Below are positions 13,234 through 37,865 of a DNA stretch of 64,000 bases, piece after piece. The translations under genes were made by a program, and so were the position numbers. How positions within the stretch are numbered: the first letter of the stretch is position 1; each line of letters opens with the position of its first letter. Source of the DNA: Candidatus Babeliales bacterium (lineage in GTDB: Bacteria; Babelota; Babeliae; Babelales; JANWKD01). The stretch lies in NCBI GenBank assembly GCA_963722075.1, contig CAVRJM010000001.1, forward strand, positions 1,120,001 through 1,184,000, given 5' to 3'. The notes under the pieces were generated by a model that made no database searches, had not been told where the DNA came from, and saw only the letters and a program-made list of their open reading frames with translations.

Positions 13234-13249
13234 TTTTATCCTTTATTTT

Positions 13250-14396
13250 CAGGACTTACGCATTGGTCGAAAGTTCTGATTGGGACTTGAAATAAATAAA
13301 AAAGGGTGCTTCAATTTTGTGAATTAAACAACAAAAGCAAAAAAGAAGGACACCCGAAATGAGAATAACAAATACAAATGAAGAATCAAGCACACCAAAA
13401 TATGTAATGGGTTTATTAAAAACAACGGCACGAAAAGTTTGCACAAATATTTCTGAAACACTGGGAATAATGCATGATGTGCTCAATAGGGAAGTTGAAA
13501 AAGCAGCCCAGAATGCAGCAGAAATAACAAGCTCATTACAAAATGTTGCTCTAGAAAGTCTTAGCAATTGCGAAAGATATTTGATAATCGATGATACTCC
13601 CGTAAATAAGCAATATGCTAACGATATTGAAGGATTAGAAATTGTTTATGATAGTAGTGAGAAAAGATCAGCTTTGGGATTACGGTCTGTAATTGGCATG
13701 ATCACTGATACCAGAGTAAGAATACCGATTGATGCGGAGATTATGATAAGCAAAGTATTTGGAGAAACCAATTACAAGACAAAAAGTGAAATTGCTTACA
13801 TTATTATAGAGCGTGTTCTAGGATCAATTCGGTTTAATTGGTTAATTGCAGATGCCCATTATGCGACTGAATACCTTCTGCCAAAGCTTTTTAACAGGTC
13901 AATAAAATTTCTGATGAAAATTCCCAGAAATCGCGTTGTTACTATTAACAATAAAACAGGACAATTGCAAAAAATTTTACGTTTGAAAAAAAATAACAGA
14001 TTTGCTTGTGGATACGGCACTATTTTTGGTCTTTCCTGTTATTTCTATGTGTTAAAAATTGATAAGGAAAAAATTATGTATCTTATCAGTAGCCATCAGC
14101 TCGGCAAAGAGAAGCTAATTTCTACATATAAGATTCGTTGGCAAATTGAATGCTTCAATAGAACTGCCAAACAACTTCTTGGATTCAGCGAATGCCAAAT
14201 GCGTTCTTTTAACATGCAGCGTGCGCATTTACTTTTCGTGTTATGGGCTTATGCTTTAGCCGACATAAGGCGGGTAAAAGATAATTTCGACAATACTGAA
14301 CAAGCTGTCAGATCCTTTCGGGTCGCAAAACCCCCTACACCATCTAGTTTATTTTATGCTTTTGAAGAGAACTCTTATGCTCTTGCGTAAGTCCTG
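13250..14396 (+). mobile_element. Complete IS, IS701-like (IS4 superfamily)
   Basis: Perfect 13-bp TIRs CAGGACTTACGCA (13250-13262 and 14384-14396), flanked by the 7-bp direct repeat TTATTTT (13243-13249 and 14397-14403). Confidence 0.92.
13359..14390 (+). CDS. DDE transposase (IS701-like)
   Basis: LIIDDT..K.Y...IEG, IADAHY, Y..RWQIE...R..KQ.LG...CQ.R; stop codon lies inside the right TIR. Confidence 0.9.
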   Translation: MRITNTNEESSTPKYVMGLLKTTARKVCTNISETLGIMHDVLNREVEKAAQNAAEITSSLQNVALESLSNCERYLIIDDTPVNKQYANDIEGLEIVYDSSEKRSALGLRSVIGMITDTRVRIPIDAEIMISKVFGETNYKTKSEIAYIIIERVLGSIRFNWLIADAHYATEYLLPKLFNRSIKFLMKIPRNRVVTINNKTGQLQKILRLKKNNRFACGYGTIFGLSCYFYVLKIDKEKIMYLISSHQLGKEKLISTYKIRWQIECFNRTAKQLLGFSECQMRSFNMQRAHLLFVLWAYALADIRRVKDNFDNTEQAVRSFRVAKPPTPSSLFYAFEENSYALA

Positions 14397-14490
14397 TTAT
14401 TTTTTATATTTCTTTTTTTGATAATGAAAAAAAATATTGATACATTGCAACTATTTTTTTAATACTAATAAAAATCTATAAGGATAAATT

Positions 14491-15516
14491 ATGGTATTTC
14501 ATATTATATATTGTTGTTTTTTTGCTTTTCTTCCCCTTCTATGCCAACCGCCCAAACTTCTCAATTGTGGTGCCACCTGTTATTTAAATGCAGCCACTCA
14601 AGCACTCTTGGCTATTAATCCGCTTAAAAATTTTTTACAATTAAATCCAAATGTTTATGCCCGAGGGTCGTTTGAAAATTCATTTCAACAATTAATAACT
14701 GCTGCGCCGCCGCTTGGCTTACCAAATCGTCAATTAATGAATACCTATGCAAAACAAGGCGCGAATATTATTGCCGGGTTATCACAAGGCAATCCCCTTG
14801 GTCAACAAGATGCATCGGAATTTTTAGGAGAGGTACTTGACCGGTTACGTACCAAGGGAAGAGAAGATAAAGAAAAAACGATTCGTCAATTTCTGAGTAA
14901 CATAATGGGTATACTTATTTATTCACAAATTGAATGCCCTCTTTCAGAATCACAATCTTATATTGCATCAAAACATACTAGCACTACGTATTATCTTTCA
15001 TTGCCAGTAAAAACAGCTTATGAGTTGCGTTCACTTGAAGAATGTTTATATGAATACTTCCAACCAGAACAGATTGAATTTAATGACCAAGAATGCAGGA
15101 AAACCAGCCAATTAGAGCACATTTCTTCTATTTTTATGGTGAGCTTAAGTAGGTATATTTTTGACATTGAAACACTAGAGGCTAAAAAATTAAGTCATTC
15201 TATACACGTTCCACTTACTTTCGATGTGCAACCATATTTAATACAAAAGCAAAATCATAATTTATATAAACTCATCGCATGCGTTGTGCATCATGGAACA
15301 GCAGCAGGAGGTCATTATGTTGCCTGTGTAAAATATGATAACCAGTGGTATCTTTGCGATGATACAACCATAACTAAGATCACTAAAAAAAAAGTAAAAC
15401 AATATGCCTCAATGGGATATATTTATATTTATGAACAAGAATCGTATACTACTATTAAAAAACAACTTGCTCATTTGAAACGAAGATTGAAAAGATTGTT
15501 AAGTCAGCTTCGCTGA
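14491..15516 (+). CDS. Secreted USP-family (C19) deubiquitinase-like protein
   Basis: Cys box LLNCGATCYLNA, QQDASEFL, His box HHGTAAGGHYVACVK..WYLCDD, GYIYIY; signal peptide. Confidence 0.92.
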   Translation: MVFHIIYCCFFAFLPLLCQPPKLLNCGATCYLNAATQALLAINPLKNFLQLNPNVYARGSFENSFQQLITAAPPLGLPNRQLMNTYAKQGANIIAGLSQGNPLGQQDASEFLGEVLDRLRTKGREDKEKTIRQFLSNIMGILIYSQIECPLSESQSYIASKHTSTTYYLSLPVKTAYELRSLEECLYEYFQPEQIEFNDQECRKTSQLEHISSIFMVSLSRYIFDIETLEAKKLSHSIHVPLTFDVQPYLIQKQNHNLYKLIACVVHHGTAAGGHYVACVKYDNQWYLCDDTTITKITKKKVKQYASMGYIYIYEQESYTTIKKQLAHLKRRLKRLLSQLR

Positions 15517-15549
15517 GCTTTTGAATGTAAAAATGAAATAATTTATTTG

Positions 15550-15758
15550 CTGGATCCTCACGGTGCTACGCACCTCAGGATGACATTCGTTAACCTGTCA
15601 CTCTGAGGCCGTTATACCGTAGGAATCCAATTATAGAATTAATTCATTATTGTCATCACGAGCTTGCGTGGTGATCCATTAATAAAATTCATTACCTCTA
15701 TTTGTAGCCTGGATTGCTTCGTAAGCCATGTCCGCCGAAGCCCCTGGATCGCAACGAC
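15550..15758. repeat. Cluster of four type-A palindromes, the last with a short type-B insert
   Basis: Units at 15550-15584, 15597-15629, 15652-15678 and 15708-15758. Confidence 0.85.
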
Positions 15759-15853
15759 AAACAATTGTAAATTTAATTTCTTTAAACACAGTATTTCTTG
15801 TATAGAGAACAAAGATTTAAAATTAAATAAAGATATAAACAAAGTGACTTCTT

Positions 15854-18421
15854 ATGAATATTGAACAATTTACCACCTCAAGCCAAGAGCTCATTAATAA
15901 AGCAGCATTTATCGTAAAGCAGTATAATAATCCGGCATTAACGCCGCTTCATTTATTAGCTGCAGCGCTCGAATCTGAATTTTGTCGCTCTTTTTTTGAA
16001 GTATTACATGTTTCATTAACAACACTTACTTCATTAGTACAAACTGAACTTAACAAATTACCCCAAGTACAAGGTGCGCAATTAGCAATTGATTATACCA
16101 CCGAACGTTTTTTAGATGAGGTACAAAAAGAAGCAACTAAATTGGGCGATTCCTACATAAGCTTGGAACACTTTTTGCTGGTATGGGCTACCACTACATA
16201 CCTTCCTCAATCAATTCGAGATTTTTTTAAGCAGTCCCATTTCACCTATACAGCGATCATGAATCATATGAAAACAATGCGCAAGGGAAAAAACGTGAAA
16301 GAAAAAAACGCTGAAAAACAATATCAAATTTTAGAAAAATATTGCCAAAATGTTACCGATCAAGCGCGCCAAGGAGTACTTGATCCGGTTATTGGACGGC
16401 ATGAAGAAATACGCCGTGTTATACAAATTCTTTCACGCCGCACCAAAAATAATCCGGTTTTAGTAGGAGAGCCGGGCGTTGGTAAAACCGCAATCGTAGA
16501 AGGAATTGCACAACGTATTATTAATAACGATGTTCCTGAAAGTTTGCGTAACAAACAAATATTTTCTTTAGATTTAGGATTACTAATCGCTGGCACTAAA
16601 TATCAAGGGGAATTTGAAGAGCGCATTAAAGGAATTTTAAAAGAAATTGAAGAGCGTCCTGATGATGTTATTTTGTTTATTGATGAATTGCATATGATTA
16701 TCGGCGCGGGCGCTTCTGGTGGTGGCGGCATGGATGCTTCTAATTTAATGAAACCAGCACTTGCACGCGGACAACTTCATTGCATTGGGGCAACTACGCT
16801 CAAAGAATATAAAAAATATATAGAAAAAGATGCGGCATTAGAGCGGCGTTTTCAAAAAGTACTCGTAGAAGAACCAACGGTAGAAGATGCCATTTCAATT
16901 CTGCGTGGTCTTAAAGAACGGTATGAATTGCATCACGGTATTCGCATTAAAGATCAAGCGTTGGTTGACGCTGTTTTATTGGCTGATAAAAATATTGCTG
17001 ACCGTTTTTTGCCCGATAAAGCAATTGATTTAGTTGATGAAGCCGCAGCAATGGTAAAAATGTCAATTGATTCGCAACCATTTGAAATTGATCAATTAGA
17101 GCGCAAAATCAGACAATTAGAAATTGAAAAAGTAGCATTACAAAAAGAAAAAGAAGACAGCGCTGCACAAGAGCGACTTAAGCAATTAGATCACGAATTA
17201 CAAGAATTAAAAGAAAAAAATAAAACGTTACTCAATCAATGGAAAGCAGAAAAAGAGCCGCTTGAAAAAATTAATAAAATAAAAGAAAAAATAGAACTTG
17301 CCAATGTTGAATTTCAGCAAGCAGAGCGTGATGGTAACTATGCACGTGCTTCAGAAATAAAATATGGCACCTTAGTAAAATTGGAGCATGAACTTGCTCA
17401 ATTACAAGAAAAATTAAAATCACTTTCTACGCACATGATTAAACAACAAGTTGATGAACATGATATTGCCAAAGTAATATCTCGTTGGACCGGGATCCCG
17501 GCAGAAAAATTACAAACTAATGAAGCACATAAAATTTTAACCATGGCTGATATTCTTAAAAAACGAGTAATTGGGCAAGATGAAGCGATTGAAAAAATTA
17601 CGCATGCAATTCAATTGCATCGCACCGGTTTAGTTGATCCTAATAAACCAATTGGCTCGTTTCTTTTCTTAGGACCTACGGGTGTAGGTAAAACAGAAGT
17701 TGCTAAAACGCTCGCTGATTTTCTTTTTAATGATCCTAAACGCATTATCCGTATTGATATGTCAGAATACATGGAAAAACATGCCGTAGCACGCCTTATT
17801 GGTGCACCACCGGGTTATGTTGGTTATGAAGAAGGCGGCCAACTAACTGAGCAAGTACGCCAACATCCATATAGCGTGGTGTTATTTGATGAAATAGAAA
17901 AAGCGCATCCAGATGTTTTTAATATTTTTTTACAAATTCTTGATGAAGGCCATTTAACTGATAGCCAAGGGCGTACCGTTTCATTTAAAAATTGTATCAT
18001 TATTATGACTTCTAATATCGGCTCTGATATTATTTTACAAGCGGAATCCATTACTGAAAAAGTTAAACAACAAGTTGAGCAACTCTTGCATCAACGTTTT
18101 AAACCGGAATTTTTAAACCGAATTGATGCACTAGTATTTTTCCATCAACTTACGCCGGAAGATGTACAACATATTGCTCAATTACAAATTCATGAATTAA
18201 AAGAACGCCTTACCGAACGTCATATCAATGCAACCATTGATGAAGCGGTGATTAAAAAAGTAGCACAAGAAGGTTATGTAAAAGAATTTGGTGCCCGCCC
18301 GCTCAAAAGAACCATTCAGCGGCTTATTACCGTGCCAATTTCACAATACTTACTGAAACATCCTGATACAAAAACAATACGTGTAGCACTTGAAAAAGAT
18401 GAAATTGTTATTAAAGGATAA
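15854..18421 (+). CDS. clpB: Chaperone ClpB
   Basis: [15 protein letters not shown], coiled-coil M domain, [28 protein letters not shown]. Confidence 0.97.
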
Positions 18422-18436
18422 GAAAATACGTTACAC

Positions 18437-18495
18437 CGCTTTTCGTGATGACGAAATCAGAAAACTGTCGTTGCGAGTTTACGAAGCAATCCAGG
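18437..18495. repeat. Type-A palindrome (one full, one partial unit)
   Basis: TCGTGATGAC ... GTCGTTGCGAGTTTACGAAGCAATCCAGG. Confidence 0.8.
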
Positions 18496-18594
18496 TTAAA
18501 AATGCAAATGTCGATTTCTACTAGACAAAATACTTAAGCATACGTTATTATTGGGCACAAGAATATTAACACACAAATAGTTGAAGGAAATAAC

Positions 18595-19530
18595 ATGACA
18601 ATATTCAAAAAAAATATTTTTTTTACCTTAACATTATCTCTGTTAGCTCAATCATGTATTGAAGCAAAATATTGGAATTGGGATCAAGATCCTGCTGATC
18701 CAGAAGCAGTAAAGCGTATATTTGAACAAACTATGGAGAGCGAATTACAACCACATAGTCAATCTGAAAAAGTGAAAAACACCATTCAAAACGCTAAATC
18801 AAATAAAGCAAACAATTTTAAGCAACTCGTTGCATGGAAATATTTATCAAAATATGAAGCAAAATCTGAAGCAGAGCAAGGTGGTCGCGACGAATCTATT
18901 AATTTAGCATTAAACATTATGTATGCTGAAATCGGAGATCAGTTAGATAATGCTATCAAAAAGCAAGACAAAGCTGCAACTGATGAAGATCTAAAGAGAA
19001 TTTATCATAAAATAAAAGATGTTATTAAACAAAAAATGCGCTCTGCTTACCGTCCTGCAACGGTGTTACAAGATTTCACTAAACCAGATTCTTACAATAC
19101 TACCAAAATAGAACAGTTGGTTAATCAAGAAGTTGCTAAACTCCCTAGTAATTTTAAAGAAAAACATTTTAGTGAAAATGATATCGTAGAGGTTTATCCA
19201 CAAAATAAAGTTGATCAAATGCGTTTACGCGTTCAACAAGGTAAAGTATGGCGAGAAGATGATTGTGCTGTTTGTGGCGAAGAATTTAGTACGCTTGGCA
19301 AACGAGTAAATTTAGAATGTGGGCACGCAATAATGTGCATGAAATGCGCTGTTGCCTCCATGCATATCTATAAAAAATATAACTGTCCAGTTTGCAGAGC
19401 CGCTATTGATCCAAATGATTTCTCACTCCGTTATCTCAAAAGTAATATGAAAGAATATGATTACAAAATATTTGAAAAGCTAGATCAGAATACCATGAAA
19501 CAAATCATGGATCTTTTTAAACGCGTTTAA
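18595..19530 (+). CDS. Secreted C3HC4 RING-finger protein (putative E3 ligase effector)
   Basis: Signal peptide; CAVC...LECGHAIMCMKC...CPVCR. Confidence 0.85.
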   Translation: MTIFKKNIFFTLTLSLLAQSCIEAKYWNWDQDPADPEAVKRIFEQTMESELQPHSQSEKVKNTIQNAKSNKANNFKQLVAWKYLSKYEAKSEAEQGGRDESINLALNIMYAEIGDQLDNAIKKQDKAATDEDLKRIYHKIKDVIKQKMRSAYRPATVLQDFTKPDSYNTTKIEQLVNQEVAKLPSNFKEKHFSENDIVEVYPQNKVDQMRLRVQQGKVWREDDCAVCGEEFSTLGKRVNLECGHAIMCMKCAVASMHIYKKYNCPVCRAAIDPNDFSLRYLKSNMKEYDYKIFEKLDQNTMKQIMDLFKRV

Positions 19531-19535
19531 TTATG

Positions 19536-19565
19536 AAGGGCCCTTTCACAGGGCCCTTTCTTTAT
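19536..19565 (+). terminator. Rho-independent terminator
   Basis: AAGGGCCCT-ttcac-AGGGCCCTT followed by a T-rich tail. Confidence 0.75.
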
Positions 19566-19605
19566 ATTTTCTTATTTTTCTCTTTGGTAAAAAACAGAGT
19601 ATACG

Positions 19606-21327
19606 ATGCATCTTTATTTAATTATTTTTTTAGCACTTTCTTTTTCAACTATTTCTCTGCCCATGGAGCATGATTCTGATGTTCTCATGCAGGATAAATT
19701 GCCACCACCTAACGCGAAATCCTGTGTGCAAGATTTAGACATCTTATATACAAAAAATAGTTCAGTAGCATGGAAAGGGTTATGGATTCTTAATAATCTT
19801 CTTAAGAAAAAATCATCGAATGATCTATTAACTTATTATAGAGATATGCTCAGAGCCACCCTAGGTGCAACAAATAAACCCTTATTCATTGATTATTTTA
19901 TCCCTCGTTTAAACGACCTCATTAGAACAGCTCCCCTATTATCCGATGAATCAGCACTCATGGATTCATTAGAAAGTATTATTTCATTACTCAATGAACA
20001 ATATCCAACTGAGGCATTAAAACATACCGCTCGATTAATAAAAAAACGAAAACTAAATGATCGCAAAGGAAAGCAACGAATCAGATATGATGCGCCCGAA
20101 CAATCACATTCTAATGGCACTGAAAAAAATACCATCGATATCGATGCTTTAGAAAAATCGCATAATGGATCAGTGCTCAATTTTACTAAAAAATTTGAAG
20201 ATTTTATTACATCAAAAATGGGAAATTCTCGTGACCAGCTTATTGGCAATTTAGCCGATTTTATTGGTACCCATTACCAATCGCACCCCTGGGTTTCTGC
20301 TTATTGCTATTTAAAAATGCATCTGACACCTTCCAACAGTCAAGATACACTTTTCTTTGCGCTCATGGAAAGCATTAATAGTACGTGTCTACCGCATTTA
20401 TGCCAAAATAAACAAATACAAGAATTTATTGATTCTTTCACCCAAGATGCACAACCATTAGAAATTGAAGAAGCAACACCTGCTTATTTATATGATCCAC
20501 TTAGCATTACAACGGATCTCGGGGATCAACCATGCTTATGTATTGCCCAAAAAAATCTACTAATTATCGCAGATAAGGATTTAACTATCTATGATGTTGC
20601 AAAAAAAGCGTCGGTTGCTGCTCATCCCCTGACTACTGGTATTATTGCTCTTTGTCATACGCCGGTTACTGCATATCTTCCACCAACGATCATGACTGAC
20701 TTATTACCGTATGGTGATAAACTATATCTATTATCATCAAATAATAACACTATTAAATCAGCTTTACTTTCTCCCGGTCATGATTATTTGCTTACTCTCG
20801 ATTCAGACAATACTCTTTACGCTCTTAATATTGAAGAAGAATATAATCGTAGACAATCCAATGCTAAAGAAGAAGGGCATCAGCGGATTGCAACCCAGAG
20901 TTCTTTAGATTCTGTATTATTTTTAAATAATCACAAATGTTTAGTGGGCAATTACCCTATGGCCTTGATTTGTAATTTAAAAAAAAGAAAAACTAAATCA
21001 ACAAATTATACTAATTTAAGTTATGCTACCTTATTAAATAAAATGCTCCTTACGGTGCAAGATCATACCACCCTGCATCTTTGGGACCGCAGCCAACAAA
21101 AGCGAATGATACTGGCTGATGAAAGAAAAATAAGAGGGTTAGTAAGTTTTTCGGATTTTGCAGTAGTTGCCGGTCTTGAAAATATGCTCATTTATCATAA
21201 GGATCACGGACTTATTGAAAATATAGCAGTTAAGGAATCCATTACCGCGCTGCAAAAAACCGAAAACAAATTATTTGTACATTGTTCCGATAATAAATTA
21301 TTAGTATATTCAGCACGAGAAAATTAA
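19606..21327 (+). CDS. Secreted protein with a C-terminal WD40-like beta-propeller
   Basis: Signal peptide followed by MEH; degenerate blades (LTIYDV, LSPGHDYLLT..SDNTL, DHTTLHLWD). Confidence 0.65.
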   Translation: MHLYLIIFLALSFSTISLPMEHDSDVLMQDKLPPPNAKSCVQDLDILYTKNSSVAWKGLWILNNLLKKKSSNDLLTYYRDMLRATLGATNKPLFIDYFIPRLNDLIRTAPLLSDESALMDSLESIISLLNEQYPTEALKHTARLIKKRKLNDRKGKQRIRYDAPEQSHSNGTEKNTIDIDALEKSHNGSVLNFTKKFEDFITSKMGNSRDQLIGNLADFIGTHYQSHPWVSAYCYLKMHLTPSNSQDTLFFALMESINSTCLPHLCQNKQIQEFIDSFTQDAQPLEIEEATPAYLYDPLSITTDLGDQPCLCIAQKNLLIIADKDLTIYDVAKKASVAAHPLTTGIIALCHTPVTAYLPPTIMTDLLPYGDKLYLLSSNNNTIKSALLSPGHDYLLTLDSDNTLYALNIEEEYNRRQSNAKEEGHQRIATQSSLDSVLFLNNHKCLVGNYPMALICNLKKRKTKSTNYTNLSYATLLNKMLLTVQDHTTLHLWDRSQQKRMILADERKIRGLVSFSDFAVVAGLENMLIYHKDHGLIENIAVKESITALQKTENKLFVHCSDNKLLVYSAREN

Positions 21328-21330
21328 TTT

Positions 21331-22563
21331 ATGGTTTTTATATTTTTATTATTTTATTTATTATCTCTTACTCCACTGCAATCCATGGAGGCACCCGAAG
21401 ATGATTCCGTTACTTGTTTAATAGGCATATACAACTTCCACAAAGAGGCAGACATCGAAGCAGAAGGGATCGCTCTTGTAGAAAGCGCACTACAAGAATG
21501 GCTCATTACAAATCAGCCGGCAAAACGAGATTCCATTATTGATAATTTTATAAAATTATTAGAAGGGGCTTGCAAGTACAAAATACCTCCTTTAATAACT
21601 CTTACCTGCGTATATCTTACTAAATATTATAAAAACAATTTTGATACACCTGAAACTGCACCAGAAAAAACTGCAACACAAATACAAGAAACTGCACTGC
21701 GTTTATATAATGAATTGCTCAAACTAAATCCACAAGCAAAACACACAGAATTATTTAAATTGACGCAAATTAAGTCGAGTAATCAGAGTAATATTGTTAC
21801 ACAAGCTTTTATAGCAGAAGCTACTGCCACTCAACCTTATCTGCCACCACGAACTTCGCAACCAACTATAACAACCAAGCCTAAACCCGTTTTTAAAGAC
21901 GATAAACAGAATAGCATTGAACTACGCAGCAGTAATGAAACAACCTTTTACGCAATAGTAGATAAATCACCGATACCCCGTACTGATAACCCTACTAACT
22001 CTTTTATTGCTTCCGATCATTATCTTGTTACTTGCAATAAAAACGATATAAAAGTAGATAATCAAGCGCAAGGGCGTCGTTTTACTCTCCAAGGCCATAC
22101 AGCTCCAATTTTATCAGTACATTTTATTACCACCCATAAATTAATAAGCCGCTCACGCGATGGTTGTATCTTTTTGTGGAATTTAAATAAACAAACTTAC
22201 AAAGTATTATCAAATAATAAAGATGACAAACTACGAGCGCTTGCAATTGCGCAAGGTACTATGTTTAGTCTTCACGATAACCGTATAATCAAATTTTGGG
22301 ATAGAAGTAAAAAAAGCGCATTGCCAGTACATTCCGAGGTGTTGCCAATTATTTCGGATATTGCTCTTTTTAAAAATTGTTTAGTAGCTGCAGTAGCAAC
22401 CTATTTAAAAATATGGCCTAAACATGATAGTTTTTATGAAACTCGCGATATAAACTTAAAGAATTCTTGCCCAATTACTAAATTGAGCGCTTCTGATAAC
22501 CTTTTGATGGCTTTCAATGAACAGGGTAAAGTGCATATTGTAAGTGCCGTAAAAAAAGAGTAA
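21331..22563 (+). CDS. Secreted WD40-repeat protein (paralog of the upstream gene)
   Basis: Canonical blade TLQGHTAPILSV..LISRSRDGCIFLWN; IKFWD; signal peptide followed by MEA. Confidence 0.8.
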   Translation: MVFIFLLFYLLSLTPLQSMEAPEDDSVTCLIGIYNFHKEADIEAEGIALVESALQEWLITNQPAKRDSIIDNFIKLLEGACKYKIPPLITLTCVYLTKYYKNNFDTPETAPEKTATQIQETALRLYNELLKLNPQAKHTELFKLTQIKSSNQSNIVTQAFIAEATATQPYLPPRTSQPTITTKPKPVFKDDKQNSIELRSSNETTFYAIVDKSPIPRTDNPTNSFIASDHYLVTCNKNDIKVDNQAQGRRFTLQGHTAPILSVHFITTHKLISRSRDGCIFLWNLNKQTYKVLSNNKDDKLRALAIAQGTMFSLHDNRIIKFWDRSKKSALPVHSEVLPIISDIALFKNCLVAAVATYLKIWPKHDSFYETRDINLKNSCPITKLSASDNLLMAFNEQGKVHIVSAVKKE

Positions 22564-22569
22564 TAACTA

Positions 22570-23307
22570 ATGAGCCATTACACATTTGTTTTAAATTGGA
22601 AAATGTATTTTTCTTTCGATCAGGCAAAGCAATGGCTTGAAGATAATAAAAACGCGCTCGAAGAATTGGCGCATGATCAATCTTTCATTTTGTGCCCTTC
22701 GCATGAATCATTATGGCTTACCACTGCAGCGCTAGAAGGTGCGGCCATAGAAATAGGAGCACAACAGTGCTCGGCGCATGAACTCGGTGCTTATACAGGT
22801 CAAGTATCAGCTGCTTCATTGCATGATATGGCAATTAACTATTGCCTTGTTGGCCATAGCGAAGCGCGCATGGCATTTCATGAAACTAATGAGCAGTTGT
22901 ATAAAAAACTAGAATTGCTTACCAAGTTTGGAATAATTCCCATTTTTTGTATCGGAGAAACGCTTAAGGAGCATGAACAAAAAAAAACGTACGAGGTGCT
23001 CCATCAACAAGTAGAACCATTACTACGAGCTACTTCATTACATAACACTCCTTATTTTATTGCCTATGAACCTGTTTGGGCTATCGGTACTGGCAATGTT
23101 GCTTCTGCTTATTATATTCAGGAAGTATTAGCCTGGATAAAGGATATATTCACAAATGCTACCGCACCAATCACGCTATTTTATGGGGGTACCGTTAATG
23201 CTGACACGATTGAATCTTTAAAAGCAATTCCACTTATTGATGGCTTTTTAATTGGAAAAGCAAGTACAAATTTTCAAGAATTAAAAAAAATTGTATCATT
23301 GATGTAA
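22570..23307 (+). CDS. tpiA: Triosephosphate isomerase
   Basis: NWKM, GAYTG, GHSE.R, AYEPVWAIGTG, YGG.V, DGFLIG.AS. Confidence 0.96.
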   Translation: MSHYTFVLNWKMYFSFDQAKQWLEDNKNALEELAHDQSFILCPSHESLWLTTAALEGAAIEIGAQQCSAHELGAYTGQVSAASLHDMAINYCLVGHSEARMAFHETNEQLYKKLELLTKFGIIPIFCIGETLKEHEQKKTYEVLHQQVEPLLRATSLHNTPYFIAYEPVWAIGTGNVASAYYIQEVLAWIKDIFTNATAPITLFYGGTVNADTIESLKAIPLIDGFLIGKASTNFQELKKIVSLM

Positions 23308-23334
23308 ATAGGAATTTGATATTCTGAAATTTGA

Positions 23335-23417
23335 TGGATCCTCACGTCGCTTACGCTCCTCAGGATGACGGGCAGCATTTATGTCATTCTGAGGCCTTTA
23401 GACCGTAAGAATCCAGG
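23335..23417. repeat. Type-A palindrome pair
   Basis: TGGATCCTCACGTCGCTTACGCTCCTCAGGATGAC ... GTCATTCTGAGGCCTTTAGACCGTAAGAATCCAGG. Confidence 0.85.
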
Positions 23418-23441
23418 TATACATATAAATAATCTTAATTA

Positions 23442-23780
23442 TTGGAGAAAAATATGATCTATGGCTTATTATTAACACTCTATTTGATAGTATGCTTATT
23501 CCTTATCCTATTGGTTCTGATTCAAAAGGGTAAAAGCTCTATGGGAATTGGTAACTTAGGTGGTGGCGTTCAAATGCTTTTTGGCGGGTCAGGTGGCCAA
23601 GATTTATTCCAAAAAACCACGTGGGCATTAGGAGCTATCTTTATGGCTGGTTCATTATTTTTATCTATTCTTAAAACACATCAATATAATCAATCACGCT
23701 ATATTACAGAACGCCCAGCCATCACCATGCCTAAAGAAGCTCCGGTAAAACCTGAAGCTCCTGCACCAACGCCACAATAA
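23442..23780 (+). CDS. secG: Preprotein translocase subunit SecG
   Basis: LILLVLIQ.GK...G..GGG...LFG, two TM helices; follows tpiA. Confidence 0.92.
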   Translation: MEKNMIYGLLLTLYLIVCLFLILLVLIQKGKSSMGIGNLGGGVQMLFGGSGGQDLFQKTTWALGAIFMAGSLFLSILKTHQYNQSRYITERPAITMPKEAPVKPEAPAPTPQ

Positions 23781-23784
23781 AACT

Positions 23785-24558
23785 ATGGTTATATCTCTGA
23801 TCAATTCTATTGGTAGTTATGTTATATCAATGTGTAATATGATGGGGCTATTTGCACTTTTTTTATTGAACGTCATAAAGACCGCATTCACTACTAAACT
23901 TAAAATGAAAAAGGTGCTAGCGCAACTTGATGAAATTGGCTTTAACTCGCTGGTGATCGTTGTTTTAACGGGCACCTTCACCGGTGCGGTATTAGCATTG
24001 CAAACGTATATCGGGGTGCGCCGGTATGGTGGTGAAGAATTTATCGGGCCCATTGTTGCACTAAGTATGGCACGAGAATTGGGGCCGGTGATTACCGGCT
24101 TAATGGTAACGGGCCGCTCGGGATCTGCAATTGCAGCAGAAATAGGAACCATGCGCATCACTGAACAAATTGATGCGTTACAAACCTTACGCATTAATCC
24201 TTTACAATATTTAGTAGTGCCACGCCTTTTGGCAGGCGCTTTTATTTTACCGTTTCTTACGATGTTTTCGGTAATTTGCGGCATTATCGGCGGCTATTTT
24301 ATTGCTACCAGCGTTTTGGGCCTTAATGGAAACCAATATATTAACGGCATCAAGAAGTATTTAGAATATTCTGATGTTACCAATGGTCTTATTAAATCAA
24401 GTGTTTTTGGATTTATTTTAACCTGGGTAGGCGCCTTTAAAGGGTACCTTGCTGATGGTGGTGCGCGCGGTGTTGGTTTGGCTACCACGCAAAGTGTGGT
24501 CATGGGATCTATATTGCTACTGCTCGCTAATTATTTCTTAACCTCAGCACTGTTTTAA
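23785..24558 (+). CDS. mlaE: MlaE-family ABC permease
   Basis: RELGPV.T.L...GRSGSAIAAEIGTMRITEQIDAL, GGA.GVG.ATT..VV. Confidence 0.93.
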   Translation: MVISLINSIGSYVISMCNMMGLFALFLLNVIKTAFTTKLKMKKVLAQLDEIGFNSLVIVVLTGTFTGAVLALQTYIGVRRYGGEEFIGPIVALSMARELGPVITGLMVTGRSGSAIAAEIGTMRITEQIDALQTLRINPLQYLVVPRLLAGAFILPFLTMFSVICGIIGGYFIATSVLGLNGNQYINGIKKYLEYSDVTNGLIKSSVFGFILTWVGAFKGYLADGGARGVGLATTQSVVMGSILLLLANYFLTSALF

Positions 24559-24656
24559 AAGTACAGAGTAGGAATTTTTCATGACCTAATACGCTGTATA
24601 CATGGCCACGAATTATACATTTTATATTCAAAGCCTAAAAAAGATGTATTAAAAGT

Positions 24657-24892
24657 CGTCGTTGCGAGCTTGCGAAGCAATCCAGGCTAAAAACGAGCCG
24701 GTATATAGCAGCAAAAAGTAATATTATAACATTATGATTTTTTACTATTCCAGAAAACAAATAAAAGAGAAAATAATATAATTATTCATCAAATTAATAA
24801 ATTAATACTAAGATAATTGTAAGTAACAAACATAACAAAACATAAAGAAATTTATAACTGAACCTGGATTGCTTCGTAAACTCGCAACGACG
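24657..24892. repeat. Inverted type-A pair around a ~175-bp AT-rich spacer (MITE/REPIN-like)
   Basis: GTCGTTGCGAGCTTGCGAAGCAATCCAGG (24658-24686) and CCTGGATTGCTTCGTAAACTCGCAACGAC (24863-24891); lies between mlaE and mlaF. Confidence 0.85.
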
Positions 24893-24958
24893 TATTGCAG
24901 ATTCAAGGCAATTGGTCAGGAGTAAGATCTTCTTGCATGCAAAAGCAAAGATGTAGAA

Positions 24959-25714
24959 ATGATTAAAATTATTAATTTACGTAAAAAATTTGATCATCGC
25001 TGGATTACCGATGGGGTCGATTTAGAAATTCCTGAAGGTAAGATGACGGTTGTTATCGGAAGGTCTGGTGAAGGTAAATCGGTATTACTCAAACAAATTA
25101 TTGGCCTTATTACTCCCACTTCAGGTGAAATTATTGTTGATGGCATAGATATTGTACCAATTGCGCAAAAAAACCCTGATGAAATTTTTAAACAATTTGG
25201 TTATGTATTTCAATTTGCAGCACTACTTGATTCTTTAAATGTGTTTGAAAATGTTGGTATCAGCTTACTAGAACAAGGAATGCCGCCGCAACAAGTGTTA
25301 CCAATCGTTAAAGAACGCTTAAAAATGGTTAATTTAAAAGAAGAGATTCTCAATCGAATGCCATCAGAAATATCAGGTGGTATGAGAAAGCGGGTAGGGC
25401 TTGCGCGCACGCTTATTAGTAAGCCAAAAATTATTCTCTATGATGAACCAACCACCGGTCTGGATCCAATTACCTCACGCGTTATTCATGAACTTATGTT
25501 TGATATGCAAAAGCAGCTTAATATCACGTCTATTGTTATTTCGCATGACGTTGAAATTTTTAAATACGCCGATTATGTTGCCTTATTGCATGAAGGCAAG
25601 ATTCGCTTTCATGGGGACGCCAAAACCATTTGGGAATCAGATAACCCCTATATTTATCAATTCATTCGCGGCCTCACTGAAGGGCCTATTCAAACAGAAG
25701 CTAAACAGGCATAA
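24959..25714 (+). CDS. mlaF: MlaF-family ABC ATPase
   Basis: GRSGEGKS, FQFAALLDSL, ISGGMRKRVGLAR, YDEPTTGLDP. Confidence 0.92.
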   Translation: MIKIINLRKKFDHRWITDGVDLEIPEGKMTVVIGRSGEGKSVLLKQIIGLITPTSGEIIVDGIDIVPIAQKNPDEIFKQFGYVFQFAALLDSLNVFENVGISLLEQGMPPQQVLPIVKERLKMVNLKEEILNRMPSEISGGMRKRVGLARTLISKPKIILYDEPTTGLDPITSRVIHELMFDMQKQLNITSIVISHDVEIFKYADYVALLHEGKIRFHGDAKTIWESDNPYIYQFIRGLTEGPIQTEAKQA

Positions 25715-25723
25715 GCCAACCAT

Positions 25724-25823
25724 GTCATCCCGATCCGCCGCCGCGCAGCTTTGGAGATACAAGGCCTATCCCATCGAAGTTATTTATTCCGCTTTTGTCA
25801 TCCCGAGCTCGCGTGGGGATCCA
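25724..25823. repeat. Type-A partial unit with type-B insert, plus a full type-A unit
   Basis: GTCATCCCGATCC[...] followed by GTCATCCCGAGCTCGCGTGGGGATCCA. Confidence 0.8.
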
Positions 25824-25929
25824 TTAATTAATCCCTAGCAATCCTCCCTTAATCATTGTTTCTATTTGAATTTTTTTATAGAAAAAAGCAACTTTAATAG
25901 TAAAAACAGCTTACGGCAAGCCTTTCTTA

Positions 25930-25957
25930 TTGACACAAATCATATTATTGTTATAAT
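25930..25957 (+). promoter_or_regulatory. Consensus sigma70 promoter
   Basis: TTGACA-16 bp-TATAAT with an extended -10 TG, about 75 bp upstream of the 26031 ORF. Confidence 0.65.
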
Positions 25958-26030
25958 TGTAATTTGAATGGATATTTTTAGATAAATAATTACAAACAAG
26001 TAATTTTCGCGGACAATTCAAGGGATTATA

Positions 26031-27026
26031 ATGGGGACTTTTGCTAAACCATCTTTATTGTTTATTTTACTCCTTTCTGCTGCATTACCAAGCTTTGGCA
26101 TGAATAAAACTAAATCTTTTTTTAAAAAAGGATTAGGAATAGCGGCAACAGTAGGAACAGGAGCATTAGTAGTCACCAATTATGGCCTTTCATTTGCACT
26201 TCCTGGCTCATTAGTTTACTCAAAGATCAAAGGTTCTATTAAGGAAAAGAAAGAATTACCCGAACCACCTGAATCAGTAAAACAATTTATTCAGGCAAAT
26301 TTAGCAATACAAGGAGTCCATAATAGTGATCAAATACAAATAAAACATGAACCAGTAGCAACACAAGCTAAAGCTGCATTGCATAGCCCATCGGTTTTTA
26401 ACAATACTGTTTTTGTTCCTTGTTATCCTAAATATTCACGATCTGAACAAAAAATACTACCACGCTCCATATTACAAGATACATTAGAAAAAAATGATGA
26501 GGATTATTATGAGCACGATAGAAAAATGCAACTAGCTGAACAATCTTTCATATATCGCCATGAAGCAAATCATATTAAATATCACGATACAAAAAAAATT
26601 TTAGGTGTATCTATATTTATTCCATGCGCTATCAAGGGAATATCATTTTTATTAAAAAAATCGTATAGACCAAAACAATTGCTTAAAAATCTCTTAGCAA
26701 TACCTGGCGGCATACTCACAACATATACTAATATTATTTTTTCCACCGCTTATAGAAGAATGACTGAACAACGAGCTGATGATGATATTGTTGCAGATGA
26801 TCCTAAAATACTTAAGGCTGGAATAAAATTCTTTAAACAAATGCAACGATATGAGCCCCATGAAAGAATCCCCGCTTCTTTTTCTGATCATTTATTGAAA
26901 ATAGCTACTAACATACGTACCCATCCTCGTCTTCAGCACCGCATTAATCGTTTAAAAGAGCGTAAGAAGGCACTTGAGGGATTAAAGCATAAAAAAATAA
27001 AAAAAACAAAATGGAATAATTATTAG
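26031..27026 (+). CDS. Secreted M48-like zinc metallopeptidase
   Basis: HEANH, EQRADD, THP.L..RI; signal peptide and hydrophobic segments. Confidence 0.75.
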   Translation: MGTFAKPSLLFILLLSAALPSFGMNKTKSFFKKGLGIAATVGTGALVVTNYGLSFALPGSLVYSKIKGSIKEKKELPEPPESVKQFIQANLAIQGVHNSDQIQIKHEPVATQAKAALHSPSVFNNTVFVPCYPKYSRSEQKILPRSILQDTLEKNDEDYYEHDRKMQLAEQSFIYRHEANHIKYHDTKKILGVSIFIPCAIKGISFLLKKSYRPKQLLKNLLAIPGGILTTYTNIIFSTAYRRMTEQRADDDIVADDPKILKAGIKFFKQMQRYEPHERIPASFSDHLLKIATNIRTHPRLQHRINRLKERKKALEGLKHKKIKKTKWNNY

Positions 27027-27048
27027 GAGCTTTTTAGAGGACAATCAT

Positions 27049-27291
27049 ATGTATAAATATTTATATCTCCTGCTTTTTCTATCGTTACCCTGCATCGCCA
27101 TGGATCGCAGCGTATCGCATAAACGGAATTCAAATGCTTCATTTTATTTAGGAAAAAATGTAACAACATTCTCTCTAGAACGACTTCAGCTCCAAAGAGA
27201 GATTGAAGATGCAAAACTAAAGCAAGAAGAAGTGCGCGAGCAAATGAAACAACCCGAAAGTTATTTTAGTAGGTTTTTTGGCAATAATTAA
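27049..27291 (+). CDS. Small secreted hypothetical protein
   Basis: GAGGA RBS; signal peptide followed by MDR. Confidence 0.65.
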   Translation: MYKYLYLLLFLSLPCIAMDRSVSHKRNSNASFYLGKNVTTFSLERLQLQREIEDAKLKQEEVREQMKQPESYFSRFFGNN

Positions 27292-27713
27292 AATAGTTTA
27301 TTTTTTATACGCCTAAATAAGCCATGCACTTCATAATCATTAATGGCGGTATTAAAAAATGCTTTAGCTCCTAAAATATTGATTCCATATCCTAAACTTC
27401 CCAAACTTACCGCTCCCCAAAAAGCGCCAACAGCAAGAGTTAATTTATCTAACTTTTTTTCGTTAAAAATTGATAAAGCTCCTAACCCAGTGATTACCCC
27501 AAATCCCGTCATCAAATAGCCGGTTGGTCGCTGGCTAGCAATCTTGGTGCCTGCCAGATTTTTTCGCTGTTCCTGCCGCTGCTGTAAGTTTTTTTGTTTG
27601 GCTTTTACTATTTGTTGCTGCAAATGACGTATTTCTTCTTGTTTCTCTGCCTCCGTCTGCATAGAATGAGCAAAAGCCGGCATTAAGAGAAGTAAAAGAA
27701 TATAATGAATCAT
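27288..27713 (-). CDS. Secreted/membrane hypothetical protein
   Basis: Signal peptide followed by MQT, coiled coil, two hydrophobic helices. Confidence 0.7.
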   Translation of the reverse strand: MIHYILLLLLMPAFAHSMQTEAEKQEEIRHLQQQIVKAKQKNLQQRQEQRKNLAGTKIASQRPTGYLMTGFGVITGLGALSIFNEKKLDKLTLAVGAFWGAVSLGSLGYGINILGAKAFFNTAINDYEVHGLFRRIKNKLF

Positions 27714-27924
27714 ATTATTTTTTCCTTTAATTTATATCCCTCATATATTTATAAACTACCATAAAATCGGTCTTTTGGGAAAAGCCATGATTTAATAGCA
27801 GAGCAGAATAATATTTCTAATATAAATTATTATTGTTTTAATAAATTCACCTGAGATCAATTTGACACTAATGCAAATTTTTGAAATAGTAAATATATAT
27901 AATTCAAAAAACAGATAGGGACCT

Positions 27925-28965
27925 ATGTTATTTCAATTAATCTATATACTACTTTTTACCATAACTATTTTTAAACCAATTTACACACAAGAACCATCAG
28001 CTGCTGCTGCTGCTGAAAAAAATAGCTATCCGGCTACATATTATAACTATGAATATAATGAAAAAAATTTAGAGGGAATGTTCAATATACCTGGATGCCA
28101 AGGCGGCCCAGATTGCCAATGCAGCAGCGCAGTACTTTATAAAAACTGCACCAATTCATTTATATGCGAGTCGGTAATTAATGAAAATGGTAACGGTATT
28201 GCCTGTTCAGTATCTGTATCTGAAGAAAACCCTTACTTTGAACAATTAATTTCAATTGCAGCCAATAACAGTAATAAATGCATAGAAAAATTTGAAGAAA
28301 CCATAAGGGAAGCGGAGCAAGCTTTACATGAACAACAGGATGGCCAAGACTCTCAAGAACTAAAAGAAGCATATACAATATTGAAAAATGCCACAAATGA
28401 ATATAGAAAATACAGCTCACCAGAACAAATTAAAGACAGCCTTTATCGACATACAGATGGGAAAAAGTATATTACTAATATATTTTTAAACCCACGCAGA
28501 CCACTTATTTTTTATTCAAAAGAATTTTTAGAAAAACGATTTAAAAATATTTCATCTGAATATTTAAAAAATTTTCTTGAAAATGAAGCAATGATTCCGA
28601 TGGGAATTTTAGTAACGCATTTGGCAAAGCAACAAACTGAACGCCTTTTAGCATTTGTTGTTCTTTGCAAGTTTGTAATACAACCAGATAAAGAACATCT
28701 CGTTGATTCAAGCTTTATTTATCATGACAAATTCGGCCCTTTTATGGTTGCCGCCCTTGCATTAGACGTAGATTGCCCTGATAGGTATATATTCAAAAAA
28801 ACTTCAGAGTCTGATGAATATCAATTTTTAGAACTACATGAATCAATAACGCCTCCACATTATATTGATGGCTTTACCATATCTAAAGGATATCAAAAAC
28901 TTAAAAAAGAGAAGCCTGATATTTTTGAAAAAGGTTTTATTACAATCTCAGAGTCATCAAATTAG
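27925..28965 (+). CDS. Secreted hypothetical protein
   Basis: 346 aa ORF, signal peptide, Cys-rich N-terminal part. Confidence 0.7.
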   Translation: MLFQLIYILLFTITIFKPIYTQEPSAAAAAEKNSYPATYYNYEYNEKNLEGMFNIPGCQGGPDCQCSSAVLYKNCTNSFICESVINENGNGIACSVSVSEENPYFEQLISIAANNSNKCIEKFEETIREAEQALHEQQDGQDSQELKEAYTILKNATNEYRKYSSPEQIKDSLYRHTDGKKYITNIFLNPRRPLIFYSKEFLEKRFKNISSEYLKNFLENEAMIPMGILVTHLAKQQTERLLAFVVLCKFVIQPDKEHLVDSSFIYHDKFGPFMVAALALDVDCPDRYIFKKTSESDEYQFLELHESITPPHYIDGFTISKGYQKLKKEKPDIFEKGFITISESSN

Positions 28966-29060
28966 TTATTTATAGCATTTTTCTCAATTTCTTGATTTTT
29001 AGAAGATCTTTATCGGTAGACTACCAATAAAGATCTTTTTTACTTTAATGAAGAATCTCT

Positions 29061-30455
29061 ATGAAAAAAAACCTAATTATTTTATTAACTATTATTCCGT
29101 TATCACTATCTGCACAACCACCAGCTTTAAGAAATTTTGGCAATAGCTGCTATGTTAATGCCTTAATACAAGCCCTCTATGCTACTAAACCCCTCAACAA
29201 TCTCTTATTAAGCACAGAAGTACCGCTAGAATTTATTTCTATTCCTGCTCGCACTTATAAAGATTTAGTGATCAATTTTATTAACGGCAATCAATCAGCT
29301 ATCGATGCAGCTTTATTTGATTTTTATAACAGCATAAAAGGAGTTTATGCAACGGGAACTGGAGCTGGGCCTTCACAACCTCCGCCAGGTATCGTTATCC
29401 CAAAGCAGGAACAACCAGCAGGCAGACGGCAGCCAGTAGGCAGAGGTCGTCGTCCAACGCCTAAATCAGCGCTTGAAAAAGCAATTGAAGAAAGTAGAAA
29501 AGAAATGTTCGAGTTTACTAAGCAACATGCGCAATTAATTACTACCATTGCACGCGCAAAAAACCCTACTTTTGATAAGTTATCTGCCAAAGAAAAGCAA
29601 GATATCCAATATTCAATTAGCGACGTTTTGAATACCTTTAATCAAGAGCGACAGCAAGATGCACACGAATTTCTTATGTATATTTTAAAAGAGCTACAAA
29701 AAATTGCACCCACTCAAGCAGAAGAACTTTTTTTCTATTTGCTCTCTAATAATGAACAAGATGCTATTCTTAATATACCCACCTATACACCGGCAAAAGT
29801 TGTTATTGATTATGCAATGGTATCAGGGCAATACCAATTGTTAAGTGAAATCTCATACTTCGATTCACTTTATGAAGGGTTAAAGAAGGCATTACGAGGA
29901 TATAAAATAGCAATCACACCTTCAATTTTCATCTGTGCATTAAATAGAACCGTTTCAGGTCGTAATATTGATACAACAGCAATTAGTTCCTTAAAAATTA
30001 GACATCCGGTGAGAATTCCATTCATTTTAAATCTGAGTCCTTATACCACAGGTGATGAGCCAACAGCTTTTGATTTATATGCTATTGCTGTTCATCGAGG
30101 CCTATCAGCAAATGCTGGTCATTATGTCACCTATGTCAAGCACAACAATCAATGGTATTTATGCAATGACATGCAAATAAAACCAGTAACGGCTCAAGCA
30201 GTACGTAATGAAATAGAAACTGATGGCTACATTCTTTTTTACCAACGGATAGAGGAATATTTTGAAGAAGAAGAGCCTGTAATTATTGAAGAAGAGTTGC
30301 CCCTTGAAGAGCCTGAAGAAATTCTTATTGAAGAACCCGTGGAAGTTCCGCCTGCTCAAAAAGAGGAAGAAGTATCGTCATTAGAACAAGCGCTGCGTTG
30401 GCTACAAATTAAATTGCAAACATTGCTAAAGGCACTCACTCATTTGTCATCCTAA
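29061..30455 (+). CDS. Secreted USP-family deubiquitinase-like protein with a UIM-like insertion
   Basis: LRNFGNSCYVNA, QQDAHEFL, HRGLSANAGHYVTYVK..WYLCND, GYILFYQR; acidic tail. Confidence 0.92.
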   Translation: MKKNLIILLTIIPLSLSAQPPALRNFGNSCYVNALIQALYATKPLNNLLLSTEVPLEFISIPARTYKDLVINFINGNQSAIDAALFDFYNSIKGVYATGTGAGPSQPPPGIVIPKQEQPAGRRQPVGRGRRPTPKSALEKAIEESRKEMFEFTKQHAQLITTIARAKNPTFDKLSAKEKQDIQYSISDVLNTFNQERQQDAHEFLMYILKELQKIAPTQAEELFFYLLSNNEQDAILNIPTYTPAKVVIDYAMVSGQYQLLSEISYFDSLYEGLKKALRGYKIAITPSIFICALNRTVSGRNIDTTAISSLKIRHPVRIPFILNLSPYTTGDEPTAFDLYAIAVHRGLSANAGHYVTYVKHNNQWYLCNDMQIKPVTAQAVRNEIETDGYILFYQRIEEYFEEEEPVIIEEELPLEEPEEILIEEPVEVPPAQKEEEVSSLEQALRWLQIKLQTLLKALTHLSS

Positions 30456-32846: not shown

Positions 32847-32860
32847 AGTGGAAAAAAAGA

Positions 32861-37862: not shown

Positions 37863-37865
37863 ATT

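Follow-up and report, generated by a model that had tools for sequence, protein, structure and literature searches.

A window of 64,000 nucleotides (the whole stretch of DNA analysed here, G000:C1:1120001-1184000) from a Candidatus Babeliales genome of 1.47 Mb (99% complete, 2% contaminated) contains two open reading frames (ORFs) for ubiquitin-specific proteases (USPs, family C19) and two for RING proteins, each with a signal-peptide-like N-terminus as assigned from hydropathy and by eye. We consider it probable that these four proteins are exported via Sec and a type II secretion system (T2SS) into a protist host as ubiquitin-editing effectors, with a short leucine-heptad helix, found on three of them, as a likely sorting or docking label. 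This explanation is based on the sequences, the predicted folds and catalytic residues, the distribution and synteny of the genes, the lack of a match to a ubiquitin-conjugating enzyme (E2) or to ubiquitin in the genome, and the positional enrichment of the helix; from these we infer Sec cleavage, passage through the T2SS, localisation in the host, deubiquitinase (DUB) and ubiquitin ligase (E3) activities, and whatever role the helix has. The four genes are the following (lengths in amino acids, aa):

12271..13233, minus strand: RING1, 320 aa; signal-peptide-like start, leucine-heptad tag, orphan helical and Pro-Gln region, C-terminal atypical RING
14491..15516, plus strand: USP1, 341 aa; signal-peptide-like residues 1-18, USP domain, C-terminal tag
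18595..19530, plus strand: RING2, 311 aa; signal-peptide-like start, helical region, C3HC4 RING, no tag
29061..30455, plus strand: USP2, 464 aa; signal-peptide-like residues 1-18, USP domain, acidic linker, C-terminal tag

Two USPs and two RING proteins within 18 kb had been proposed in a sequence-only reading of this DNA, and this was borne out: the ORFs are as described there and span 18.2 kb, with RING1 lying outside the interval 14491..30455 to which that reading had been assigned. In the profile search, USP1 and USP2 are the sole USP matches of the genome, and RING1 and RING2 its sole RING matches above the cut-off.

Catalytic residues and fold of the two proteases

Both proteases match the Pfam family UCH (E 2e-37 and 2e-35). 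In USP1, the Cys box (N25/C30) is followed by the QQD box Q105-Q-D107-A-S-E110, by H275-Y276 and by D290/D291; the corresponding residues in USP2 are N25/C30, Q198-Q-D200-A-H-E203, H354-Y355 and N369/D370. The oxyanion Asn and the catalytic Cys, the Glu for Arg72 of ubiquitin and the aromatic gatekeeper are all present in both proteins, and the predicted structures recover the thumb-palm fold. The earlier statement that the Cys, QQD and His/Asp-Asn boxes are kept in both USPs thus describes them correctly, all of these boxes being intact. The same reading had singled out a motif, QPPxLxN, at the start of both mature proteins. QPPKLLN and QPPALRN do begin at residue 19 of USP1 and USP2, and QPP is found there in no other ORF of the 1391 in the genome; PPx occupies this position, however, in 52 of 96 relatives with the Cys box inside the first 60 residues. 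The motif belongs to the Cys box, of which it forms the opening segment, situated directly after the signal peptide, and it reflects common descent and not a special N-terminus.

Concerning USP1, the n-region of the signal-peptide-like sequence is without Lys or Arg. The AF2 model (mean predicted local distance difference test, pLDDT, 89; predicted TM-score, pTM, 0.85) resembles eukaryotic USP7 and USP2 in Foldseek (E ~1e-23, TM ~0.7) and exhibits finger strands at 141-150, 156-166, 193-197 and 200-211. The fingers are shortened and lack CxxC, as in the clade of USP1 generally, in which a single Cys (C149, C202) is situated where each of the CxxC pairs would be.

In USP2, a large insertion is found in the thumb, and both finger hairpins are deleted in the alignments; its AF2 model (mean pLDDT 67) contains no finger strands, at low confidence in this part. 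Both hairpins are also absent in five of the eight clade relatives, with an intermediate state in the other three, and an insertion of about 25 residues after a conserved LxxP strand takes the place of the fingers in this clade. Zinc-ribbon CxxC pairs number zero in all 11 rows of the window clade, as against two in all 14 eukaryote-like rows. USP2, as far as its alignments and model tell, is a finger-deleted variant of the USP fold and no canonical USP. When compared with VIA-align, the model is closer to USP14 (Z 24.3, root-mean-square deviation 3.1, 252 aligned residues) than to CYLD (Z 17.5) or to TssM of Burkholderia (Z 13.1, deviation 3.7, 179 aligned). The loss of the fingers in the USP2 clade appears to be independent of that in TssM, since the USP2 model is nearer to canonical USPs and USP2 has no Ig domain. 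A query of the ESM Atlas with USP2 returned only UCH clusters under 0.9.

According to the TssM study (PMC10719079), fingers are present in all other known USP structures and constitute the S1 site of canonical USPs, and both the fingerless TssM and the finger-truncated CYLD remain DUBs. As the fingers are lost, USP2 would probably bind ubiquitin differently, perhaps with selectivity for chain or substrate. A further step would be that the members of its clade are no longer ubiquitin proteases and instead act on some other host protein or on a ubiquitin-like modifier as their substrate. This would agree with the deletion of both hairpins in six of nine clade members (three being intermediates), given that the fingers are the canonical S1 site; we nevertheless regard it as improbable, because the Glu of QQDAxE, the gatekeeper Y355 and the triad are retained and because TssM and CYLD are active without complete fingers.

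The RING proteins

In RING2, the eight zinc ligands are complete (C224 C227 C242 H244 C248 C251 C264 C267, then R268), and the domain scores 33.6 bits with PF13920 (cut-off 27). One homologue at 59% identity was found, and syntenic orthologues exist in two genomes of another genus (G109, G110). The RING of RING1 (C262 C265 C280 [K282/C283] C285 C288 C303 C306, R307) scores 29 bits with PF13639 against a cut-off of 27.3; Cys283 may replace the His ligand, such that eight Cys would coordinate the zinc. For residues 45-255 of RING1 no homologue was found, and the N-terminal region is without a match in the ESM Atlas. A CPxCR motif is common to both RINGs, for which E3 activity is a prediction from sequence. 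In family f17, a conserved protein family of about 365 aa with signal peptide, internal repeats and a C-terminal RING-H2 domain was also observed (L032, L033, L039, L042, L056, L057).

A leucine-heptad tag on signal-peptide proteins

USP1, USP2 and RING1 share a helix of 19 residues with Leu at positions 1, 5, 8, 12, 15 and 19, which has no match in Pfam or NCBIfam and which we consider, by its sequence and placement, a candidate portable sorting tag. Neither this helix nor the finger deletion of USP2 had been noted in the sequence-only reading. Within the window it is found at four sites:

13108..13170, minus strand: tag of RING1, adjoining its signal peptide
15451..15513, plus strand: tag of USP1, C-terminal, a basic variant; helix 319-340 in the model
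30378..30440, plus strand: tag of USP2, C-terminal; helix 431-463 in the model
41501..42199, minus strand: a fourth tagged signal-peptide protein (tag 41507-41569), without a Pfam family

Besides USP1, USP2 and RING1, about 35 other signal-peptide proteins carry the tag, which either follows immediately on the signal peptide or is C-terminal. Three profiles were used, one derived from the genome under study (G000), an independent one built from ten USP tails of other genomes alone, and one of 61 tails, the seeds of which stem from other sources but were chosen with the G000-derived profile, so that it is partly circular. The tag of RING1, held out of the seeds, scores 28.9 (G000 profile), 20.5 (ten tails) and 25.4 (61 tails), and that of USP2 scores 18.2, 15.7 and 29.8, respectively; the tag of USP1 reaches 18.4 with the 61-tail profile but only 10.3 with the G000 profile. 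Run over the 1391 ORFs of G000, the independent profile gave 26 hits at score 14 (2 hits in shuffles), 20 of which are terminal (8.6 expected) and 20 of which lie on signal-peptide-like proteins (11.1 expected). With the 61-tail profile, peaks on signal-peptide proteins amount to 22 in 20,034 sequence windows just after the signal peptide (11.0 per 10,000) and to 10 in 17,034 at the C-termini (5.9 per 10,000), compared to 4 in 187,817 in the interior (0.21 per 10,000); where a signal peptide is lacking, the corresponding counts are 1, 1 and 9 peaks in 17,523, 14,802 and 152,354 sequence windows (~0.6 per 10,000). The positional enrichment obtained with the first hidden Markov model of the tag was discounted, as its seeds had been filtered by position and the result was hence circular. 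Among the 150 best USP relatives, 33 are tagged at score 12 with the G000 profile (USP2 included), all of them at the C-terminus and 32 with a signal-peptide-like start. The tag profile also produces false positives, among them a ClpB coiled coil and a MerR regulator.

For the most part, the tagged proteins show no relationship among themselves. When 34 other tagged proteins of G000 were scanned, 26 had no Pfam match above the cut-off, and the remaining eight matched NUDIX, NADAR, Macro, MavL-like, Exo_endo_phos, DnaJ, marginally BrxC-helical, and MerR (the false positive). The 30 tagged proteins of relatives, some of them cut by the ends of loci, include three with ankyrin, two with PPDK_N, and one each with a metallophosphoesterase, NUDIX and NADAR domain. 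The tagged signal-peptide NUDIX, NADAR, Macro and MavL-like genes (L117, L118, L121 and L127; G000 C1 277509-278291, 313431-314687, 422573-423454 and 931396-932955) would, by their domains, erase ADP-ribose or nucleotide modifications, which suggests a parallel set directed against host ADP-ribosylation. At G000 C1 343432-343491, a tag match is situated in a frame of 23 codons, which may be what is left of a disrupted tagged gene.

The C-terminal domain of type IX secretion, the C-terminal signals of type IV secretion and the motifs of type VII secretion are portable terminal sorting signals on unrelated exported cargo. The heptad helix is likewise a short module on unrelated cargo; unlike these signals, it is found at both ends of proteins, in combination with a preceding Sec signal peptide, and lacks a database family. 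The tag might be an address label that routes a class of effectors (ubiquitin editors, ADP-ribose erasers, ankyrin proteins and orphans) into the host cytosol. We hold this to be doubtful in so specific a form; if true, an exporter of the T2SS type, or one not yet described, would recognise a signal defined by sequence, from which the effectors of an uncultured phylum of parasites could be predicted, an independently evolved clade of fingerless USPs among them.

A stronger contender, to which we give somewhat less than an even chance, is that the proteins are host-directed effectors and the helix a homo- or hetero-oligomerisation or membrane-binding element that clusters the cargo after export on the bacterial surface, a vacuole or an organelle. 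The heptads have Leu at all a and d positions and a hydrophobic moment peaking at 100-103 degrees, which fits a short coiled coil or an in-plane anchor; some USPs (e.g., L005, L008) carry the tag as a tandem double copy, and its distribution is patchy whereas gspC is universal. Typical membrane anchors, in contrast, are basic, while most copies of the tag carry hardly any net charge, and the strict placement at a free terminus across unrelated cargo is the pattern of a recognition signal.

Proposed export route

Export via Sec and the T2SS into the host is the explanation preferred here, and the sequence-only reading had noted a T2SS-like operon nearby. A gspC-D-L-M-D cluster is indeed present, as profile matches confirm:

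31734..40265, plus strand: T2SS-like cluster; gspC 31734, gspD 32861, gspL/pilM-like 35656, gspM-like 37293, second gspD 37866

The window also holds secG, and two ATPases of the T2SSE family are located elsewhere in the genome, such that secretin, GspC, GspL/M and a GspE-type ATPase are all matched (Pfam Secretin, T2SSC and T2SSE above the cut-off; the NCBIfam T2SS matches lie below the equivalog cut-offs). gspC was found in 30 of 30 genomes searched. No match to the export gate of type III secretion and flagella (FHIPEP) or to VirB10 (TrbI) was obtained in the genome, whereas the controls did match. Similarly, neither an E2 (PF00179) nor ubiquitin (PF00240) was matched in the genome, the search with PF00179 being without a positive control and the divergent prokaryotic ubiquitin-like families lying outside the search. 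Two gspD copies are described for all TM6 genomes then known, and the same source leaves open a possible role of one of them in a pilus (PMC4776705). Cultured members of the phylum are intracellular parasites of protists (PMC6561590, PMC4378268). In GspC (window 31734-32846), a helical C-terminal extension with a FAPT motif conserved in many Babelota follows the PDZ domain; when compared by eye, these extensions show no pattern that parts tag-rich from tag-poor genomes. A complex prediction for periplasmic GspC with the USP2 tail scored 0.00, which is evidence neither way. Signals for the T2SS are usually described as conformational.

In the mechanism that we propose, the proteins would be exported by Sec, fold in the periplasm and pass through the secretin, and the tag would most likely dock the cargo to an exporter or to a site on the surface or a membrane. 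Once outside, the USPs would cleave off host ubiquitin, at the surface of the bacterium or at the replication compartment, as proposed for the T2SS-secreted TssM (PMC10719079); their likeliest job would be a TssM-like self-protection, in which ubiquitin is stripped from the bacterial surface or replication body and xenophagy is avoided. The RINGs would recruit host E2 enzymes, as shown for SneRING of Simkania (PMC12591485), and ubiquitylate host targets.

Several observations weigh against this mechanism. Concerning the enzymes, RING1 possesses Lys282 at the canonical His position and the extra Cys283, and the pLDDT of the USP2 model falls below 50 where the fingers would be. Concerning the route, B. 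massiliensis, a member of the phylum, is reported to grow inside a vacuole (PMC4378268), and the T2SS by itself provides no passage across a host membrane (PMC10719079); vacuolar growth would leave the way of T2SS cargo to the cytosol unexplained. Concerning the tag, RING2 is without it (score -6 with both the G000 and the 61-tail profile), and none of the RING proteins of 30 loci (L031-L060) scored as tagged. In G108, a genome of the same genus with the same gspC, the 1643 ORFs contain no more than 4 terminal peaks of the tag on proteins with a signal peptide, and at least seven tag matches occur in only 14 of the 261 genomes of the phylum, all in the families f1, f16 and f17, i.e., the seed lineages to which the phylum-wide profile is biased. 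Because it is this patchy, the tag is no universal T2SS signal.

Two of the four peaks in G108 are the orthologues of the NUDIX and NADAR proteins, with a diverged tag at the same end, and the tag of the USP2 orthologue is weaker than on these two. Tag matches exist in 55 of the 261 genomes, about one match per genome being background. A comparison for a tag-specific exporter gave 15 candidates present in G000 and G122 and absent from G108, none of them a secretion component; it is weak, as 760 kb of the 1.45 Mb of G122 were covered and G108 keeps a few diverged tags.

Alternatively, the proteins might stay in the periplasm, on the surface or on outer-membrane vesicles and act only on ubiquitylated material that arrives there, e.g., by recycling host proteins as food. 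A signal peptide alone says little, since 44% of the C. destructans proteins have one and vesicles are shed by this species (PMC6561590), and the conserved Cys149 and Cys202 of USP1 could form a disulfide in the periplasm. RING ligases, however, need host E1, E2 and ATP, in a genome that matches neither E2 nor ubiquitin, and the tagged macrodomain, NADAR, MavL-like and NUDIX proteins are typical of enzymes that reverse host modifications, such that we judge a purely bacterial site of action quite unlikely. As the best reading of the locus, the Sec-dependent ubiquitin-editing toolkit suggested by the sequence-only reading thus held up, given the missing matches to E2, ubiquitin, the type III gate and VirB10 and the presence of T2SS genes; its novelty did not, as it had been anticipated for a relative (PMC4378268).

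Distribution and phylogeny

The same reading had called USP-fold enzymes uncommon among the characterised bacterial DUBs; within this lineage, USPs are not rare. USPs (PF00443) are matched in 90 of 261 genomes of the phylum (63 of 189 of high quality), with up to 9 matches per genome, and RINGs (PF13639) in 160 of 261 (143 above the cut-off); both are absent from 14 controls. In all 24 aligned USPs of the phylum, the Cys, the His and the second Asp of the His box are invariant, and most consist of signal peptide, USP domain and tail. Likewise, most RING-bearing ORFs from 30 loci begin with a signal-peptide-like sequence.

The best titled relatives of USP1 are from metagenome-assembled genomes (MAGs) of Candidatus Babeliales and Dependentiae, followed by weaker matches in further groups of intracellular bacteria (Chlamydiia, Cardinium, Amoebophilus) and in Cytophagales, Rickettsiales and others (53 loci). 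In trees computed with FastTree (148 rows) and as a quick tree with IQ-TREE (66 rows, long-branch rows mostly omitted), both window USPs are placed among signal-peptide USPs of the Babeliales type, in different subclades. The group containing both is supported by an SH value of 96 (FastTree) and an SH-aLRT value of 90 (IQ-TREE, including one long viral row). A recent tandem duplication was rejected, the two proteins sharing 28% identity over 227 columns and belonging to different subclades. An approximately unbiased (AU) test did not reject a single clade of 35 Babelota-type USP rows (p 0.73, which is no proof of a clade), some signal-peptide USP representatives among them being assumed to be Babelota. 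No donor of the USPs could be placed, the deep branches being open in both trees. Chlamydial USPs stand apart from the window USPs; the Simkania proteins were not among the rows.

USP-like genes were also seen in MAGs of Cardinium, Amoebophilus, Chlamydiia, Puniceicoccales, Holosporaceae and Rickettsiales (L071-L113), which shows that USPs of bacteria have a wider distribution in endosymbionts than one would expect from those characterised so far. Some frames are unusual: G143:C17:15571-23664 (L029) belongs to an open frame of 3751 aa with four USP-domain matches, G143:C17:7357-8172 to a frame of 1884 aa with another one, and frames with two USP matches each exist in G149, G123, G124 and G131.

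Gene order and neighbouring genes

All four genes sit on a contig of 1.42 Mb between bacterial housekeeping genes and are interspersed among uvrC, IS701, clpB, tpiA, secG, mlaEF and moxR. Four random genes fell within 18.2 kb in 20 of 2,986,695 draws, the test being post hoc. The order uvrC-USP1-clpB-RING2 is conserved in G109 and G110, where RING1 is absent between uvrC and USP1, and the order USP2-moxR-gspC-gspD-gspL in G108, which lost USP1 and RING2 and whose single USP and single RING are about 350 kb apart; synteny in relatives thus covers only pairs of the four genes. The gene cluster implied by the sequence-only reading therefore dissolves into such pairs with housekeeping genes between them. 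An island or operon was rejected, as housekeeping genes are interleaved and RING1 is located on the opposite strand; promoter-like sites in the region number 60, compared to 79.5 in shuffles. The region is a housekeeping block into which effector genes were inserted, and its arrangement was inherited in pieces and is no operon. Two further features lie between the four genes:

13242..14401, plus strand: IS701-family element (transposase 13359-14390; NCBIfam NF049921), between RING1 and USP1
15854..18421, plus strand: clpB, housekeeping anchor of the conserved order uvrC-USP1-clpB-RING2

The IS701 element, of which six more near-identical full copies and one partial copy exist in the genome, is a recent insertion between RING1 and USP1 outside the system; RING1 and IS701 are both later insertions between uvrC and USP1.

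The eukaryote-type domains and the IS701 element among the genes might also be taken to indicate that contaminating DNA of a eukaryote or virus is present, or that the genes form an island acquired recently by horizontal transfer. We give this practically no credence, considering the length of the contig, the completeness of 99% and contamination of 2%, the housekeeping neighbours, the G+C content at third codon positions (GC3) of the genes (0.23-0.26, like clpB and uvrC), the conservation of gene order in other genera and the tree neighbours, which are signal-peptide USPs of the Babeliales type.

After RING2 (window 19606-22563), genes follow for two signal-peptide proteins whose N-termini are helical and whose C-termini resemble WD40 domains, possible substrate adaptors; the Pfam match is weak for the second, and the first has none. 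M48-like peptidases, a clostripain (C11) and a GH1 glycosidase are found at 26031-27026, 47318-48355, 62282-63700 and 43679-45130 of the window, and secreted M48 and C11 peptidases are likewise reported for C. destructans. In G108 (C1:891848-894406; L210), clpB is split over frames, possibly by assembly errors.

Comparison with known systems

The set closely resembles that of Babela massiliensis, for which an F-box protein, a RING protein and three secreted C19 hydrolases are described, with the T2SS, the sole secretion system detected, as predicted exporter (PMC4378268); the host-directed toolkit is therefore already in print as a 2015 prediction for this relative. Phylum, domain classes, signal peptides and the T2SS as the only proposed route are the same; that prediction concerned one genome, whereas the present analysis follows the set through 261 genomes. 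The main text of PMC4378268 (supplements aside) mentions neither a terminal heptad tag nor a loss of fingers.

TssM of Burkholderia (PMC10719079, PDB 8pz3) is, like USP2, a bacterial USP-fold protein without fingers, and uses the Sec/T2SS route that is proposed for USP2; it differs by an Ig-like domain and a Littlefinger loop, whereas the Cys box of USP2 starts at residue 20 and an Ig domain is lacking. Simkania negevensis, equally an intracellular bacterium, possesses conventional USP domains (SnUSP1-3) and the atypical SneRING, which are active in vitro (PMC10643670, PMC12591485); it belongs to another phylum, and its proteins are large with hydrophobic regions, unlike the sequence of signal peptide, USP domain and tag found here. 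With eukaryotic USP7, USP2, USP14, USP36 and CYLD, the window USPs share the thumb-palm fold and the Cys, QQD and His boxes; they differ by an identity of only ~20-28%, by the signal peptide and by the lack of zinc-ribbon CxxC pairs.

A 2026 review lists TssM and SnUSP1-3 as the only characterised bacterial USPs, and its accessible part does not mention Babela or Dependentiae (PMC13720258). In the literature searched (subscription journals mostly uncovered, supplements outside the search), no paper on the activity of Babelota USPs and no earlier report of the leucine-heptad tag or of a finger-deleted clade in Babelota was found, nor was the phylum-wide scale met with in these searches, whereas the toolkit as such is already in print as a prediction.

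USPs are thus carried by about a third of the genomes of one bacterial phylum, and the Babelota offer a large and so far untapped source of bacterial USPs and RINGs, which are small, soluble and directly assayable. The USP2 clade with its intermediates would allow fingerless ubiquitin binding by USPs to be tested. Should the heptad helix serve as a sorting signal, it would bear on substrate selection by the T2SS, and the tagged proteins would provide a list of effectors of uncultured protist parasites.

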